A DNA stretch of 64,000 bases from Bacteroidota bacterium (GTDB lineage: Bacteria > Bacteroidota > Ignavibacteria > UBA10030 > CAVZMI01): assembly GCA_050011775.1 (NCBI GenBank), contig JBEKIL010000012.1, forward strand, positions 9,941 to 73,940, in the 5' to 3' direction. Position numbers and translations under genes: made by a program. Shown here in pieces: positions 39,794 to 56,096 of the stretch; position 1 is the first letter of the stretch, and every line of letters starts with the position of its first letter. A model generated the notes under the pieces. It saw only the letters and a list, made by a program, of their open reading frames with translations, ran no database searches and had not been told where the DNA came from.

Positions 39794-39964
39794 CTATTAC
39801 CTTCGTTTTTAAAAAGATCAGTAAGAAAAGGAACAATGAAAATCTTTTTCATAGCGGAGAGAGTGGGATTCTCCGCCGCATTGGATTGAGCGATGGAGGC
39901 GGATCAGCCTCACCGATTTATAATGCGTGGCTGAGAACCCACGGTTAATATTCATCCGCTATCG

Positions 39965-40052
39965 CGGAAGGGGTGGGATTTGAACCCACGTGACGCTTGT
40001 GACGCCAACTCGCTTTCCAGGCGAGCCGATTCGACCGCTCTCGCACCCTTCC
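39965..40052 (-). tRNA. tRNA-Ser (anticodon GGA), type II
   Basis: reverse complement folds: acceptor GGAAGGG/CCCTTCC, anticodon stem CTCGC/GCGAG with loop CTGGAAA, long variable arm, T-arm GTGGG-TTCAAAT-CCCAC. Confidence 0.8.
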
Positions 40053-40479
40053 AATTTTTCTCGAAATATCCACTCAATTTATTAACTCACACGCTCTCCA
40101 GGCGTGCCATCCCGTCCCGATGTCAACGGGACGGGACACTCCTGCATCTCTCCGTTTAATACTCGCTATCTTTTCTTTAAGATTTTATCAAGCCAGAAGC
40201 GACCCGCACCACTCTTCAAGTACCTTTCTCTTTTACGTGCTTCAGATATCGTTGTAAATTCTTCCTGATGTATTAAAACCCAGGGGATTCCGCGACTAGT
40301 GAATGGTGTTTTTCCATGATTATGTTGATAGAGCCGTTGAGAAATTTCATTAATCCTTTGAAAAAGCTGTTTTTCAGTGAATAATTTTTATAAATATACT
40401 AACTCTCATCAGGAAAAGCAATTCCTTGCTTTTTCTTGCACTTTTTCGTAGTATCATTTCGATAATACAATAATAGTTT

Positions 40480-43797: not shown

Positions 43798-44271
43798 ATG
43801 AAATCATCGGCCATTCTATTACTACTTTTTTTCTGTTCTACAACATGCGTAGAGGATGCGCATAGAATGAAAATAAAATATTTCAACAACGGACAATCTG
43901 GAATTGTCGAACTTAATAAGGATAATTCAAAAAAAGTATTTGATGAATTAAAGAATTTGATTGAAGGAATCAACGACATGGCACGTCTTGTCGTTGATGA
44001 AGAGAGAATAGATGAATTAAGAAAGAACGATGAAGCACTGGAAATCGAATTCGACAATGAAATTGAATTCAACTCAAAAGAATTCGAACAATTGAAAATT
44101 AAAAAGATATTATTGCCTTTATCCGGCGATCTTGCGTATACCGAAGATGAAAGTGCCGCAGTAATTTTTCTCGGCTCTACCGCTTATGAACCAAATCCAT
44201 ACTTGAATCTAAACGGGAGATCACATATTTCCAATCTTATGAAAATCTTACCGGGTATTAAGAAAAAATAA
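43798..44271 (+). CDS. hypothetical small secreted protein
   Basis: hydrophobic N-terminus and acidic coiled-coil-like middle; 157 aa. Confidence 0.35.
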   Translation: MKSSAILLLLFFCSTTCVEDAHRMKIKYFNNGQSGIVELNKDNSKKVFDELKNLIEGINDMARLVVDEERIDELRKNDEALEIEFDNEIEFNSKEFEQLKIKKILLPLSGDLAYTEDESAAVIFLGSTAYEPNPYLNLNGRSHISNLMKILPGIKKK

Positions 44272-44471
44272 ACTGCTACCGCCTTTCTTCTTCTCTATAT
44301 TTCATACCCGTTCTCATTGCAGCATACGGCACAATTTCGAACGGATATCTGCTCTATCGATATCCGGACTTTATTTTATACATTCACACTTTTCCGTCCC
44401 ATTTTAACGAAATGGAAGTCGATTTGGGCTAGCCGAACGAAGTCCCGTGTGCAATTCGCGGGACGTAATTT

Positions 44472-44810
44472 GGCGACTGACTGCGCTCCTCCCCGGAGCT
44501 TCGTCAGTCAGGCTGATAAAGAGGGCCTGCCAAACGAAGCCTTGGCGTAGTTTGGCGACTGACCACGCTTCTACCGGAGCTTCGTCAGTCAATAATTGAT
44601 TTTTACCTGCTTGACGAAGTCCCATATGTTTCTCGTGGGACGCAGTCAAGCGACTGACTACGCTCCTCTCGGAGCTTCGTCAGTCAGGCTGATAAAGAGG
44701 GCCTGCCAAACGAAGCCTTAGCGTAGTTTGGCGACTGACTACGCTCCTCCCGGAGCTTCGTCAGTCAGGCTGATAAAGAGGGCCTGCCAAACGAAGCCTT
44801 GGCGTAGTTT
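44472..44810. repeat. array of 81-bp structured tandem repeats (three full copies, one half copy, interrupted by a 58-bp GTCCCA...TGGGAC hairpin spacer). Each unit contains two imperfect palindromes, GACTGAC...GTCAGTC and GCCAAAC...GTTTGGC
   Basis: copies at 44472-44552, 44553-44590 (half), 44649-44729, 44730-44810; >90% identical. Confidence 0.85.
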
Positions 44811-44826
44811 GGCGGAGGGGCAGGGA
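44811..44826 (-). repeat. 16-nt direct repeat of the 3' end of tRNA-Ser(CGA) (GGCGGAGGGGCAGGGA = CCA + discriminator + acceptor + part of the T-stem, bottom-strand sense)
   Basis: identical to 45537-45552. Confidence 0.8.
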
Positions 44827-44857
44827 CCGACTACGTCCCGTTTCCACCTACGTTCGC

Positions 44858-45142
44858 CTACAGCGAACTTCGGTGGACAGACCGCGGGACTTCGTCGGTT
44901 AAAATTCTTTTTTTTAATATTGCTTTTCCAGATCCTGTCTTTAAATATTTCTCCAATTCTCTCGCCTTTGATTCTGATTTCACTGCAACATAAGCTGATA
45001 TTTCTAAAGGTCGATATGCTTTGGTCGACTGAACAACACCATTATTATGTTCTAAGACTCGTCGATCCAAATTATTCGTTGATCCTATATAAATAAATCC
45101 CTTTCTGATATTTCTCAGAATATATACTTTCCAAATTAACAT
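44858..45142 (-). CDS. GIY-YIG nuclease superfamily protein, YhbQ/UPF0213-like (94 aa)
   Basis: KGFIYIGSTNNLDRRVLEHNNG matches the GIY...YIG...R...E...N core of the GIY-YIG domain; its C-terminal ~13 codons run into a 70-bp palindrome. Confidence 0.7.
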   Translation of the reverse strand: MLIWKVYILRNIRKGFIYIGSTNNLDRRVLEHNNGVVQSTKAYRPLEISAYVAVKSESKARELEKYLKTGSGKAILKKRILTDEVPRSVHRSSL

Positions 45143-45296
45143 AGCTTGGTCCTATCTCTTGAGGGGGCTTTAATAATAAGAACGAAAAGAGGTTACATAT
45201 GAATGGGGTCGACTACGTTCCGTTTCACGGAACTTCGTCGACCAAGGCCTGCGTAACGAAGTTCCATCCCGTTGTTTCGGGATGGGACGCAGTCAT

Positions 45297-45538
45297 GCGA
45301 CTGACTGCGCTCCTCCCGGAGCTTCGTCAGTCAGGCTGATAAAGAGGGCCTGCCAAACGAAGCCTTGGCGCAGTTTGGCGACTGACTACGCTCCTCCCGG
45401 AGCTTCGTCAGTCAGGCTATAAAGAGGGCCTGCCAAACGAAGCCTTGGCGCAGTTTGGCGACTGACTGCGCTCCTCCCGGAGCTTCGTCAGTCAGGCTGA
45501 TAAAGAGGGCCTGCCAAACGAAGCCTTGGCGTAGTTTG
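45297..45538. repeat. second array of the same 81-bp repeat (three tandem copies) abutting the 3' end of tRNA-Ser(CGA)
   Basis: copies 45297-45377, 45378-45457 (1-bp deletion), 45458-45538. Confidence 0.85.
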
Positions 45539-45626
45539 GCGGAGGGGCAGGGATTCGAACCCTGGGTACTCAGAAGAGTACACCGGTTTTCGAGACCGGC
45601 CTAATCGACCACTCTAGCACCCCTCC
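45537..45626 (-). tRNA. tRNA-Ser (anticodon CGA), type II, CCA encoded
   Basis: reverse complement: acceptor GGAGGGG/CCCCTCC, anticodon stem CCGGT/ACCGG with loop CTCGAAA, variable hairpin GTACTC-TTCT-GAGTAC, T-arm CAGGG-TTCGAAT-CCCTG, then G-CCA. Confidence 0.8.
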
Positions 45627-46179
45627 ATTGAAAAAGGATATATAAATATATTACTTACACTTCCGAAAAACAAGTAATATAACAGCTCGGATTTCCCATA
45701 TTAGACTTTTTTTAAATTCATACCCTGCAAAAGGAACTTCACACGTATTTAATTCTGTTATTTATGATAATGGGGATCTGCGGCTCTTAAGCGCTCAGGG
45801 TATTGTCCGCGAACTTCACATTGGAGACTTTCGGACGAATTATGATGCACAGCTTGAAAACCACCAACATTTTATCTGTACTCGATGGCATTCGATTCTT
45901 GATCTTGAGACTGTCAAAGGGTGGAATAAAGATCAGTATATTGAACGAAAATATAAGTGCAGCATTCTCTCACATTGGGTAAATTTTTTGGCATCTGTTA
46001 TGTCTGTAAGATAGAATCTCGAACGTCTGACTGTTCAGCGACCATAAAAAGAAAACGGCAAAAAGACAAGGAGCAAACTATCTTGAAAGGGAGGTTTTTT
46101 TTCCATATGTTTGGATTATATACTCGCTTCATGGACTCAATGCCATATCTATCACACATCATCTATAGCGAGGTATACA

Positions 46180-53267: not shown

Positions 53268-56096
53268 ATGAATCCCGGCCCAGGTTACTATAATCCCAAT
53301 CGGCGTCTTCCTGTTATCATCATTGTTTCTGTTATCATTGTGGTCACCGGCGTGACAGGATGTTCGGTTTTTTCTCCGATTGGTGACTTCATCAGCCAGC
53401 GGTATGAAAATACCGTTGCATACTTTAACACATATTACAATGCATCAACGGCATTTAACGATGCAGAAAACGAAGTAATACAACAACAACAGACTCTTCG
53501 TGCGAAAGACCAGCCGATCAAATTGGGAGAAATATCATCGACTGCAAAGCAGAAATTTGATATAAGCATTGAGAAACTATCGCGATTGCTCACCTTCTAT
53601 CCAACAAGTAAATGGGTCGATCGATCTCTCGTCATGATCGGGAAAGCATATTACTATGAAGGTAATATTGTTCGTGCAGAGCATAAATTTCGTGAGTTGA
53701 TTACTACAATACCATCGAGTGATTATGTGAATACGGCGAAGCTCTGGTTAGGACGTACACTGGATGCAGCGAATAAATTCCAGAATGCTCAAAAAGAACT
53801 TGTGGACCTAATTCCCCGTGCGTATGAAAATGGAGAAAGAAATATCGGAGGAGAAGCCGGACTGCTTCTCGGTCAGATATGCCTCAAGCTTGATGACAGC
53901 AGCGGGGCATTATCGGCTTTTCAGACAGTGATAGATCAATCGCACGATGACGCTCTAAAAGCTCAGGCTCAACTCTCCATCGCCGAGATCCTTGCCGAAA
54001 ACGGTGAAAAGGAAGATGTCTTTAAGGCTTTCGCCAGGGTACGTGATTTCAATGCAGAGCTTGTGACCGAATATAAGGCACGCTTAAGGTTTGCACAATA
54101 TATGGTAAAAATTGGTCGATACGATGATGCGATATCCGAGTTGCAGTTTCTTCTCGACCATCCTGATTACAGCGAATACACTGCGCAAATAAAATATTCA
54201 CAGGCATATGCATTCCATAAAAAAGGGGATATCACAGAAGCTTGGGAGCGGTATGTAGAAATCGATTCGCTCTATTCTCGCAGCGATGTAGCAGCACAAA
54301 GTTACTTCCAACGGGGGTTGATACAACAAAAAGATTCGGGAAACTATCGGACGGCAATGGCGATGTTTGAAAAGGCGCGTACTGAATATCCGCAATCTCC
54401 AATCACACAAAAGGCAACTGTATATGCCGAGAGTATGAAGCAGTATGTCCAGCTCCGAGCCAGGATTGCTCGCTGCGACTCGCTTCTGAGACATTATTCG
54501 GAAAAACCTGATAGCACACACAAAGATACTGTGGCCGTAGACACTGCCAAAAATAAGAATAAGACAATAAAAGAGTTTGAAAATCCGGAGACAGCAATAG
54601 ATTCTTTGAAGATAAAAACAGTCAAAGCCGCTGAGATGACCGCTGTCGAGGAAAACAAGAATACGAAAGAAACGGACAGTACTAATGTATTGAAAGACTC
54701 AATTGTTGTGAAAAAAGATACGACCAAAATAACGACAAAGGCGTTAGAAAATCCGGAGACAGCAGTGGATTCTTTGAAGATAAAAACAATTAAAGCAGCA
54801 GGAATGGCTGCTGTCGGGGAGATCAGAAATACGAAAGAAACGGACAGTTCTCATGCATTGATAGATTCAACTTTAATTAAAAAAGATACGACCAGGACAA
54901 CAACTAAAATATTAAAAGGTCCGGAGTCAGTAGTAGATTCTTTGAAGATGAAGACAGCCAAAGCAGCAGGGCTGGCCGCCGTCCGGGGAATCAGGAATAC
55001 GAAAGAAATGGACAGTACACGTGTATTAAGAGATTCAATTGTAGTGAAAAAAGATACAACCAAGACAACAAAGGCAGCTGTCCAGGATTCCATAAAGGTA
55101 CTTGGTGACAGGGTTGCAGCACTGTACGAGCTTGGATCATTGCTCTATTTACAGCTTGACGAACCCGATTCGGCAATGCAGATTTTAAAGGATGTAATAA
55201 GTAAGTCTCCGCCGGATGATATCGCTGCGGGTTCTCTCTTTACCATCGGGCAAATCTATCTCACAGCATTCAAGAATCGCAAACAGACGGCAGATTCACT
55301 CTCGGACAGTATTCTTGTGAAATATCCGACATCAAAATACGCGCAGGAAATTCGGCGTCAGCGCGGGCTGCCGCTCCTTGAGATATCCGCGGAAGAAGAA
55401 CCTCATACACTTTTTCTGGAAGCAGAAAAATCCCTGATTAAAAATGATAGTGAAACTACATTACATCTGTACAAGAAAATTATCGAGAAGCATCCTAAAA
55501 GCGAAGAGGCATTAAAAGCCCGGTATGCCATCGGATGGTTTTATGAAAACACCTACAAGAATATCGACAGCGCTATCACATGGTATAGTACTCTGGTAAA
55601 AGATTTTCCTACATCGGCATATGCGGCGAAAATTAAGGGAAAAATTGATGAAGTTGAGGCGGCGAAAAAGAAGCAGGATACAACCGCTGCGACTCAGAAA
55701 CGATCGCAAGTAACAACTCCATCGCAAGCACCTGCGCAAACACATGCACAGGGTGATACTGCTCGAACAACCGTCAAAGATACACTCGCACGGCGTCAGG
55801 CTGTTCCGAAACAGATTGACTCGGTAACAACTGCAACTAAAGATTCACTGTTAAAACGTCCGGCGATACGCCGGCAGTTCGATGGTGATGAAGATCAGCT
55901 CAATCGTCCTGGGGAAAAAAAGGGACAACTCAATGTGCTTTCAAAGCCGACAGGGAATATTAACATTGAAAAAGACACGAATAAAACTGTCCTTCCTGAT
56001 TCACTTTTGAAAAAAGTATCAAAAACTATCGATGAAGAGATTAAATTCAATCAGTCAAAAAAGGATAGTATACAACCAGATACATTAAAACATTAG
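53268..56096 (+). CDS. large TPR-repeat lipoprotein with an internal 3x tandem 57-aa repeat and a Ser/Thr/Gln-rich C-terminal tail
   Basis: lipobox VTGC, multiple TPR-like helices, repeats at 54580-55090. Confidence 0.55.
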   Translation: MNPGPGYYNPNRRLPVIIIVSVIIVVTGVTGCSVFSPIGDFISQRYENTVAYFNTYYNASTAFNDAENEVIQQQQTLRAKDQPIKLGEISSTAKQKFDISIEKLSRLLTFYPTSKWVDRSLVMIGKAYYYEGNIVRAEHKFRELITTIPSSDYVNTAKLWLGRTLDAANKFQNAQKELVDLIPRAYENGERNIGGEAGLLLGQICLKLDDSSGALSAFQTVIDQSHDDALKAQAQLSIAEILAENGEKEDVFKAFARVRDFNAELVTEYKARLRFAQYMVKIGRYDDAISELQFLLDHPDYSEYTAQIKYSQAYAFHKKGDITEAWERYVEIDSLYSRSDVAAQSYFQRGLIQQKDSGNYRTAMAMFEKARTEYPQSPITQKATVYAESMKQYVQLRARIARCDSLLRHYSEKPDSTHKDTVAVDTAKNKNKTIKEFENPETAIDSLKIKTVKAAEMTAVEENKNTKETDSTNVLKDSIVVKKDTTKITTKALENPETAVDSLKIKTIKAAGMAAVGEIRNTKETDSSHALIDSTLIKKDTTRTTTKILKGPESVVDSLKMKTAKAAGLAAVRGIRNTKEMDSTRVLRDSIVVKKDTTKTTKAAVQDSIKVLGDRVAALYELGSLLYLQLDEPDSAMQILKDVISKSPPDDIAAGSLFTIGQIYLTAFKNRKQTADSLSDSILVKYPTSKYAQEIRRQRGLPLLEISAEEEPHTLFLEAEKSLIKNDSETTLHLYKKIIEKHPKSEEALKARYAIGWFYENTYKNIDSAITWYSTLVKDFPTSAYAAKIKGKIDEVEAAKKKQDTTAATQKRSQVTTPSQAPAQTHAQGDTARTTVKDTLARRQAVPKQIDSVTTATKDSLLKRPAIRRQFDGDEDQLNRPGEKKGQLNVLSKPTGNINIEKDTNKTVLPDSLLKKVSKTIDEEIKFNQSKKDSIQPDTLKH
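54580..55090 (+). repeat. intragenic tandem repeat, ~171-bp period x3 (ENPETA(I/V)DSLKIKT(V/I)KAA...KKDTTK units)
   Basis: repeat starts at 54580, 54750, 54920 read directly from the sequence. Confidence 0.75.

Follow-up and report, generated by a model that had tools for sequence, protein, structure and literature searches.

Among described systems, the homing genes of the phage Seg family are one of the closest parallels to the arrangement considered here: a lone GIY-YIG nuclease gene is situated beside tRNA genes and is present or absent between relatives. SegB lies in the tRNA cluster of phages T4 and T6 and is often tRNA-linked, and the tRNA-segB unit can be amplified in tandem through microhomology (PMC13096335). 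The present analysis concerns a chromosomal locus in a 64-kb stretch of a Bacteroidota genome (contig JBEKIL010000012.1), termed the window, where a small GIY-YIG gene is found between an intact tRNA-Ser(CGA) gene and a second copy of the 3′ end of that same gene, with imperfect hairpins at both borders. The locus very probably belongs to a family of insertion cassettes. These have a common architecture, are specific for tRNA-Ser and transfer-messenger RNA (tmRNA) genes, show covariation in their hairpins, are present at occupied sites and missing from the corresponding empty ones, and encode a protein that is under purifying selection. From these properties we infer a mobility mechanism, which would be either driven by the nuclease or provided in trans.

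In the way it works, the cassette would seem nearest to free-standing homing-endonuclease genes or very small transposons, and it differs from each of the known classes with which it was compared. As with Seg genes, it is present and absent at the same locus in relatives (L004 compared with L217; the window and L216 compared with L211), and Seg amplification parallels the tandem cassettes and arrays of the cassette family. However, Seg proteins and I-TevI have a long DNA-binding domain, whereas the cassette proteins, of 85–95 amino acids (aa), consist of the catalytic domain alone, have no separate domain for binding a long target, and have a fold nearer to Slx1 than to I-TevI. Homing, in contrast, leaves no target duplication and uses no terminal hairpins. 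In addition, Seg genes are phage-borne while the cassette family is chromosomal: there is one weak match to the family in phage genomes and none in viral contigs or PADLOC. Matches in PHROGs are weak and to generic endonuclease families (E about 0.004–0.008), and a phage or defence-system origin finds no support in any of these four sources.

Integrase-bearing islands in tRNA and tmRNA genes, prophages and integrase-less derivatives of these share with the cassette direct repeats of a tRNA 3′ end at the borders, a restored tRNA gene, tRNA-Ser and tmRNA targets and tandem accretion. Unlike them, the cassette has no integrase, measures only ~0.35–0.75 kb, has repeats that fit each local tRNA, and has ends defined by hairpins. 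Insertion sequences are similar with respect to the 13–17-nucleotide (nt) duplication and the mirror-image ends, termed here HP(+) and HP(−), but the cassette has no known transposase. The REP/REPIN-RAYT and IS200/IS605 systems also consist of one nuclease gene between inverted imperfect hairpins, have gene-less pairs and possible vertical inheritance, and their hairpins are apparently read as folded DNA. They differ in that the nuclease is of the HUH/Y1 type rather than GIY-YIG, and in that the cassette hairpins are local and not dispersed, with a 13–17-nt duplication and a tRNA target.

Integron cassettes likewise contain one open reading frame (ORF) with a 3′ imperfect hairpin (attC) that has an unpaired centre, and they form tandem arrays in one orientation. 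On the other hand, no IntI is seen at the cassette, its cargo is constant, and its hairpins are 26–28 nt at their smallest, although some outer stems fit RYYYAAC/GTTRRRY. The hairpins are too short for an attC identity to be adopted. Casposons make 14–15-bp target duplications, often at tRNA 3′ ends; Cas1 and the polymerase are absent from the GIY-YIG cassette. The closest matches to the cassette protein itself, in both sequence and fold, are Slx1 and the UPF0213 proteins (YhbQ, BH0048). Slx1 is an endonuclease of branched and stem-loop DNA, and recognition of hairpins by the cassette protein would be consistent with this, but Slx1 depends on Slx4 and on a RING domain of its own. For UPF0213 proteins, as far as the literature searches reached, neither a role in mobile elements nor a link to tRNA genes is described.

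A preliminary description of the locus did not recognise it as a described element class, and this still holds, in that the literature, Rfam, PADLOC, PHROGs, phage genomes and viral contigs yielded no earlier description. Full-text literature searches found no description of a hairpin/GIY-YIG/tRNA-end arrangement. The family-wide arrangement, for which no prior description was found, may be regarded as a selfish nuclease-gene cassette.

The tRNA-Ser(CGA) locus of the window

The sequence GGCGGAGGGGCAGGGA occurs twice in the 64-kb window as an exact match, at 44811–44826 and 45538–45553, where 0.02 matches are expected by chance; no third site is found in the window even if up to two mismatches are allowed. 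One copy is part of a minus-strand tRNA-Ser(CGA) gene, as had been proposed, and ARAGORN places this gene at 45537–45626 with the CCA at 45537–45539. The 16-nt duplication is thus real and exact, with the tRNA-side copy one base away from the 45537–45552 originally given. The preliminary description considered the repeat tRNA-specific, with the reservation that part of it might belong to a repeat unit. Specificity is limited to GAGGGGCAGGGA plus the flanking base, i.e. to about 12–13 of the 16 nt, and the GGCG part ends every 81-nt tandem unit, as was suspected. Because 81-nt units come after both copies, the full duplicated block is longer than 16 nt and comprises 135 nt (44692–44826 and 45419–45553, 98% identity). 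The features of the locus, from the tRNA onwards, are as follows.

45537–45626, minus strand: tRNA-Ser(CGA), intact (ARAGORN; Rfam tRNA, 54 bits); its last 16 nt (45538–45553) are repeat copy DR1 (exact 16-mer)
45513–45540, minus strand: HP(+) hairpin, GCCAAAC-TACG-CCAAGG-CTTC-GTTTGGC (motif scan)
45297–45541, minus strand: array R, three 81-nt tandem units (Tandem Repeats Finder, TRF: period 81, 3.0 copies, 96%; DNA fold z = −4.3)
45205–45296, minus strand: extra divergent hairpin pair, imperfect HP(+)-type at 45245–45296 and HP(−)-type at 45207–45243 (DNA fold −30.1 kcal/mol, z = −6.9)
45143–45204, minus strand: 62-nt leader 5′ of the GIY-YIG ORF, kept in L003 and L216, where sequence farther upstream differs
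44858–45142, minus strand: GIY-YIG nuclease gene (94 aa, stand-alone), in the orientation of the tRNA gene (PF01541, E = 5.7e-16)
44826–44899, minus strand: HP(−) hairpin, CCGAC-GAAG-...-CGTA-GTCGG, the base of which abuts DR2 (motif scan; fold z = −6.45)
44811–44826, minus strand: DR2, the second copy of the tRNA 3′ end (exact 16-mer; counterpart in L003)
44435–44814, minus strand: array L, two intact 81-nt units (44650–44814) and two to three degenerate ones (TRF; repeat family D1)

The tRNA 3′ end reads ...TCCCTGCCCCTCC-G-CCA in the orientation of the gene, and DR2 begins with the last base of the T-loop, includes the 3′ strands of both T-stem and acceptor stem together with the discriminator, and stops at CC. 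A second tRNA end also comes after the GIY-YIG gene in L003, an independent assembly from another sample with ~94% identical DNA, and therefore the duplication is unlikely to be an assembly artefact. How many 81-nt units the arrays contain is less certain, since assemblies of the window's organism from short reads break there (L001:1 and the end of L002, SRR7028477, terminate inside them), and the number found in the window may be an assembly estimate.

The discriminator G of the tRNA is the first base of the HP(+) outer stem, and the encoded CCA is provided by this stem. The corresponding tRNA of L211, which has no hairpin, ends CCGC followed by att and has no encoded CCA; therefore the encoded CCA of the window tRNA comes from the HP(+) stem. 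The 81-nt unit consists of HP(+), a 19-nt spacer and HP(−), the latter with the sequence GACTGAC-GAAG-CTCC-GGGA-GGAG-CGTA-GTCAGTC, a mirror-image motif of HP(+). The unit is hence the cassette in miniature without the gene, and array L comes after DR2 in the way that array R comes after DR1. The preliminary description expected an empty site to lack all of 44827–45536. The mobile unit should probably be narrowed to the hairpin-bounded core, with the 81-nt arrays as secondary amplification.

The HP(−) at 44826–44899 overlaps the 3′ end of the GIY-YIG ORF (the ILTDE tail), such that the last ~7 residues are hairpin DNA in translation, and its loop holds a nested second hairpin at 44843–44877. 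At the other end of the gene, the conserved leader is a putative promoter or 5′ untranslated region belonging to the gene itself. As single-stranded DNA the hairpin segments fold much better than shuffled controls (z −3.5 to −6.9), in the order 7-bp outer stem, mismatch, A-T pair, mismatch and inner stem. The motif is confined to 44529–45540 within the window. An Rfam scan of 44200–45750 (E ≤ 1) gave the tRNA alone over threshold and no other structured RNA family.

The cassette family, its targets and empty sites

Related loci were surveyed in 80 genome loci from the Ignavibacteriota, Bacteroidota (Cytophagales, Chitinophagales and Sphingobacteriales), Neomarinimicrobiota and Fidelibacterota, all of the genomes being metagenome-assembled. 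In 67 loci a tRNA-Ser gene is found 5′ of the GIY-YIG gene, 37–783 nt away and on the same strand, with anticodons cga, gga, gct or tga, and in five more a tmRNA gene lies ~80 nt 5′ on the same strand. Seven of the remaining loci are cut by contig ends and one has neither tRNA-Ser nor tmRNA, so that 72 of 73 evaluable genes adjoin tRNA-Ser or tmRNA. In 43/67 loci the ORF is followed, usually within 30 nt, by 12 nt or more that exactly repeat the 3′ end of the very tRNA gene next to it, as against 3/67 in the upstream control and 0/67 on the reverse strand. Further copies of the gene flanked by tRNA 3′-end repeats, for which the preliminary description suggested a search, are thus numerous.

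The copy starts at the T-loop/T-stem border, stops at the discriminator followed by C or CCA, and agrees with the acceptor sequence of the local anticodon type. The duplication is 13–17 nt long across the family and the tRNA gene stays intact; some loci have perfect repeats of 45–55 nt. That the repeat stems from a mature tRNA, through priming by tRNA or a retro-element, was considered and rejected, since the second copy is sense-oriented and does not end in CCA where the gene is without it. All copies share an invariant end, ..TCCGC or ..ACCGC, because the acceptor end and the G73 discriminator of tRNA-Ser are conserved, as is typical of this tRNA.

An HP(+) is present 3′ of the tRNA in 58/67 loci and consists of a 7-bp stem, T[AG]CG, an inner stem-loop, CTTC and the returning stem. 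There are 15 different outer stems, each opening with GC at the discriminator and showing compensatory changes at stem positions 3–6. The CTTC is invariant, AGGC usually comes after the stem, and at most loci the outer stems end AAC...GTT. The HP(−), of the form ...GAAG...CGTAG..., is the mirror image of HP(+); it is found in 60/80 loci, makes up the end of the ORF and provides the TAG stop codon in 26. In 35/39 loci the gap between its base and the tRNA-end copy is −2 to +1 nt. Watson-Crick pairs make up 627 of the 646 stem pairs, and there are three G.T and six A.C pairs. G.T pairs are nearly absent, which points to pairing that is constrained at the level of DNA rather than RNA, and a role of the hairpins as RNA was judged unlikely on the same grounds.

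Cassettes are ~0.35–0.75 kb in size, and across the other loci hairpins are rare more than 400 nt from the GIY-YIG gene. Arrays of hairpin units are common (L016, L036, L048, L070 and L071) and whole cassettes are found in tandem in L061 and L068, but most family members have the tRNA-end duplication without any array.

The tmRNA-linked copies (L058, L071, L079, L082 and L084) form one Chitinophagales/Sphingobacteriales clade and lie ~80 nt after ssrA. They have the same hairpins, with tmRNA-end copies that are short (6–8 nt) or missing, and the array unit of L071 is HP(−), TTCCAC and HP(+). Hairpins are also found inside other hairpins, i.e. that nested in the window HP(−), one in the HP(+) loop of L028, and one at L004:6296–6330. 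The last of these splits the duplicated tRNA end and is absent from the L004 tRNA itself and from L217. This suggests that hairpins are able to insert on their own.

The preliminary description held that an empty site in a relative would demonstrate insertion, and two comparisons provide such sites. The first covers both flanks. In L004, the GIY-YIG protein of which is 73% identical to that of the window, the order is tRNA-Ser(CGA), HP(+), GIY-YIG gene, a degenerate HP(−), then TCCCTCC, a 35-nt hairpin and CCTTCCGC, and finally a 54-nt spacer and tRNA-Ser(GGA). In L217 the order is tRNA-Ser(CGA), a homologous 54-nt spacer and tRNA-Ser(GGA), with no cassette. L217 is the closest sampled relative of L004; their peroxiredoxins are 85% identical and the contigs are from the same metagenome. 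L004 has ~447 extra nt and a 15-nt target duplication, and both flanks match. The distal tRNA-end copy of L004 was split later by the further hairpin.

The second comparison covers the 5′ flank. L216 (peroxiredoxin 81% identical to that of the window) is occupied, with a single HP(+) and no 81-nt arrays. In L211, where the peroxiredoxin identity to the window is likewise 81%, there is a tRNA-Ser(CGA) of 98% identity with the same 5′ neighbours, but neither hairpin nor GIY-YIG gene; its homology to L216 and the window stops at the tRNA 3′ end, and the 5′ flank alone is shared. On the basis of gene order only, a further relative, the P0150 contig (response regulator, Hpt, response regulator, LacI, Fur, AhpC), has no cassette. 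At another position in the L214 genome a tRNA-Ser(CGA) without a cassette is found, and the tRNA-Ser genes of a genome are not all occupied. Homologues of the neighbouring 157-aa protein were found at the species level only and gave no orthologous sites.

A metagenome scan with the last 29 nt of the tRNA, which served as a negative control and not as an empty-site test, returned distant taxa only, with tRNA identity of at most ~80% and none with the hairpins or the family's GIY-YIG gene. One of these distant taxa, L138, has an unrelated GIY-YIG gene (38% identity) 36–257 nt after the tRNA. In three others (L162, L163 and L164) CCCTGCCCCTCCGC is repeated +158 to +160 nt downstream of the tRNA, and these repeats may be att sites of other elements.

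The copies were compared in a neighbour-joining tree of the protein, which is based on 84 aligned columns and weakly resolved. Cytophagales copies form a gct clade and a gga clade, and two copies from one genome, L031 and L051, fall one in each. In the gct clade the order tRNA-Ser(GCT), GIY-YIG, tRNA-Arg(TCT) is kept across genera and the tRNA-end copy is lost. As far as this tree resolves, it suggests that the Cytophagales insertions are old and vertically inherited, and the tRNA-end copy seems to be missing where an insertion looks old, as in this clade. Among the Ignavibacteria, copies with the four anticodons are interspersed with one another. In addition, L012 (cga) and L016 (gct) share a block, ~88% identical by a by-eye estimate, that extends from ~10 nt before the ATG to HP(−) and has different flanks, which suggests that the cassette has moved from one tRNA-Ser gene to another. 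For many copies, inheritance now appears to be vertical. The earlier proposal of a selfish element agrees with the insertion footprint and the empty sites, but it has to accommodate lineages in which the cassette appears to have long been inherited vertically, under purifying selection.

The nuclease and possible explanations for mobility

The protein belongs to the GIY-YIG superfamily (PF01541), and the motifs, the catalytic Arg and Glu and the alpha/beta fold are all present. Residues Y7, Y18, G20, R28 and E64 are invariant in 21 homologous sequences. An AlphaFold model has a mean confidence score (pLDDT, predicted local distance difference test) of 88, with residues 88–94 below 50, and the last seven residues, i.e. 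the translated hairpin, are thus predicted to be disordered. The closest solved relatives are Slx1 and the UPF0213 protein BH0048, with far weaker matches to I-TevI and UvrC. The ratio of nonsynonymous to synonymous substitution rates (dN/dS) is 0.09–0.21 between close pairs, and 0.13 between the window and L003, which indicates purifying selection on the protein. With a profile search, 1,909 clusters were obtained (50% identity, E ≤ 1e-10), nearly all of 70–130 aa; an exact look-up of the window's protein sequence gave no match.

Searches of Pfam, NCBIfam, PHROGs and PADLOC showed no known transposase (DDE, HUH/Y1, serine or tyrosine, Cas1), with GIY-YIG as the sole match type. The preliminary description reported the absence of an integrase or recombinase, and no Pfam match to either is present within about 6–10 kb; between the repeats GIY-YIG is the sole ORF. 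Its proposal of a minimal tRNA-Ser-targeting element without an integrase of its own is supported by the empty sites and by the family-wide footprint.

How might such an element move? We propose that the mismatched hairpins, in the form of folded or extruded DNA, are recognised by the Slx1-like nuclease, and that the T-arm and acceptor portion of the tRNA gene, which would fold in a similar way, is likewise recognised as DNA. The nuclease would cut at stem-loop borders, after which host repair would insert or copy the cassette, and staggered cuts near tRNA positions 60/61 and 74/75 would give rise to the duplication. The invariant ..TCCGC or ..ACCGC end could provide the sequence part of the recognition. 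Overall, the process would be a hybrid of homing and transposition, and the 81-nt arrays on both sides of the gene would be a probable by-product of repeated cutting and slipped repair. The SegB-dependent tandem amplification of the tRNA-segB unit in phage T6 is a precedent for such local arrays (PMC13096335). For this reading as a whole, including a nuclease that recognises hairpins and the tRNA end and cuts there, we estimate a probability of roughly 0.55. The narrower proposition that the nuclease itself is the mobility enzyme stands somewhat short of even odds. More tentative still, and on balance unlikely, is that the cassettes constitute a new class of prokaryotic transposable element, with a ~90-aa Slx1-like GIY-YIG nuclease as sole enzyme, recognition of the mismatched terminal hairpins and of the cloverleaf-forming 3′ portion of tRNA-Ser and tmRNA genes, staggered cuts of ~14–15 nt, host repair, and gene-less derivatives that amplify locally.

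Several points weigh against this reading. Cleavage and mobility are deduced from sequence, and no GIY-YIG enzyme, these being hydrolytic nucleases, is known to integrate DNA. Nor does a protein of 90 aa contain a further domain for DNA binding that would account for tRNA-Ser specificity. The 81-nt units are without the 14-nt duplication expected from insertion by the same route. The empty-site pairs could equally stem from precise deletion between the repeats, and the L211 comparison is confined to the 5′ flank. Lastly, the 73% identity between the GIY-YIG proteins of the window and L004 is similar to the 69% between the neighbouring peroxiredoxins, and this, together with the anticodon clustering in Cytophagales, suggests a long vertical residence and possibly a host function.

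The first alternative, which we consider rather improbable, is that the cassette is passive and depends for its movement on a site-specific, tyrosine-type recombinase, provided in trans from another locus. In this case the tRNA-end repeats would correspond to attL/attR cores and the hairpins to recombination sites in folded form, with the GIY-YIG gene as selfish cargo, in parallel with cis-mobilisable elements, Xer-exploiting elements and integron cassettes. The repeat does cover the T-loop border to the 3′ end, the exact segment that integrases use in tRNA and tmRNA genes; tRNA-Ser and tmRNA, the targets of the cassette, are classic for integrases; and tandem cassettes look like accretion. 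The hairpins, with a 7-bp outer stem, unpaired centre, inner stem and variable loop, loosely recall attC sites, but the smallest fall short of known ones in length. Furthermore, the annotated neighbourhoods have no recombinase save an unrelated serine recombinase ~3 kb away in L212, the flanks that were covered show no integrase-bearing element with a shared att site, and the supposed cargo is one constant gene under strong purifying selection. The repeats match the local tRNA across four acceptor sequences, for which target duplication is a simpler explanation than a pre-existing attP.

A second alternative, slightly less probable again, is that the cassette is a domesticated, immobile part of the tRNA-Ser locus with a host function, e.g. 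guarding or repairing a recombination-prone site, or processing, and that the duplication is a fossil of one ancient insertion per lineage. It should be pointed out that this is compatible with the nuclease-driven cassette, and the two are not mutually exclusive. The Cytophagales clustering by anticodon and the gene order kept there across genera would fit domestication, as would the low dN/dS, a protein divergence like that of a housekeeping neighbour, and the conserved leader of the gene. These have to be set against the intermixed anticodon types of the Ignavibacteria, the presence of both occupied and empty orthologous sites in relatives, in part from a single metagenome, and the incomplete occupation of tRNA-Ser genes within a genome; the perfect 45–55-nt repeats and the tandem whole cassettes also point to recent events. 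That no insertion took place at all, the 16-nt match having arisen by local segmental duplication, slippage of the 81-nt array or an assembly artefact, is very improbable: the 135-nt block of the window does consist mostly of repeat units, and short-read assemblies break at arrays, but the tRNA-specific 12–13 nt lie outside the repeat unit, the junction of the GIY-YIG gene and DR2 is unique sequence reproduced in L003, most family members are duplicated without an array, and empty sites are found.

If the nuclease does drive insertion, the cassette would be a very small self-contained mobile element, and the first case of site-specific insertion by a GIY-YIG domain alone, without reverse transcriptase, integrase or DNA-binding domain. 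It would also provide a role for part of a large uncharacterised group of stand-alone bacterial GIY-YIG proteins, and account for the tRNA fragments and the recurrent breaks in assemblies that are met with at tRNA-Ser loci of Ignavibacteriota and Bacteroidota. If a compact nuclease responds to DNA shape together with a short tRNA-identity sequence, it could be a useful tool. Should the cassette prove to be domesticated or mobilised in trans, the conserved combination of hairpins, nuclease and tRNA end would still be a defined system that can be tested.

Other GIY-YIG modules at tRNA-Ser loci

A second type of GIY-YIG gene is found just upstream of tRNA-Ser(GGA) in the window (39855–40351, minus strand); it is 5′-truncated and 92% identical to the copy in L003. 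The intact tRNA-Ser(GGA) at 39964–40052 lies within an older, broken tRNA-Ser(GGA), with the 5′ part at ~40087–40152 and the T-arm and 3′ end at ~39855–39942. At L003:10700–11760 the whole of this module is doubled in tandem, and the gene is intact and encodes 72 aa.

Small palindromic inserts, such as TCCCGTCCCGTTGACATCGGGACGGGA, are present in the D-loop and T-loop of tRNA-Ser pseudo-copies (window 40109–40135 and ~39871–39934; L212:3930–4040). These look like another kind of mini-insertion, one that targets tRNA loops.

In L212 (3800–4860; peroxiredoxin 75% identical), tRNA-Ser(CGA) is situated between two other small GIY-YIG genes. A duplicated 5′ tRNA fragment is found upstream, and downstream comes a tRNA pseudo-copy riddled with insertions, and then an HP(+)/HP(−) pair that has no gene. 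The tRNA-Ser loci of the window's group thus appear to collect several types of GIY-YIG cassette.

Two further observations concern the surroundings of the cassette. The Fur-family gene between the tRNA and the peroxiredoxin gene (window ~45700–46160) has only 59- and 81-aa ORFs, compared with 176 aa in L216, and may be a pseudogene or contain a frameshift. Farther away, a tandem repeat at 54564–55071, unconnected to the cassette, consists of three copies of 168 nt with 79% identity.

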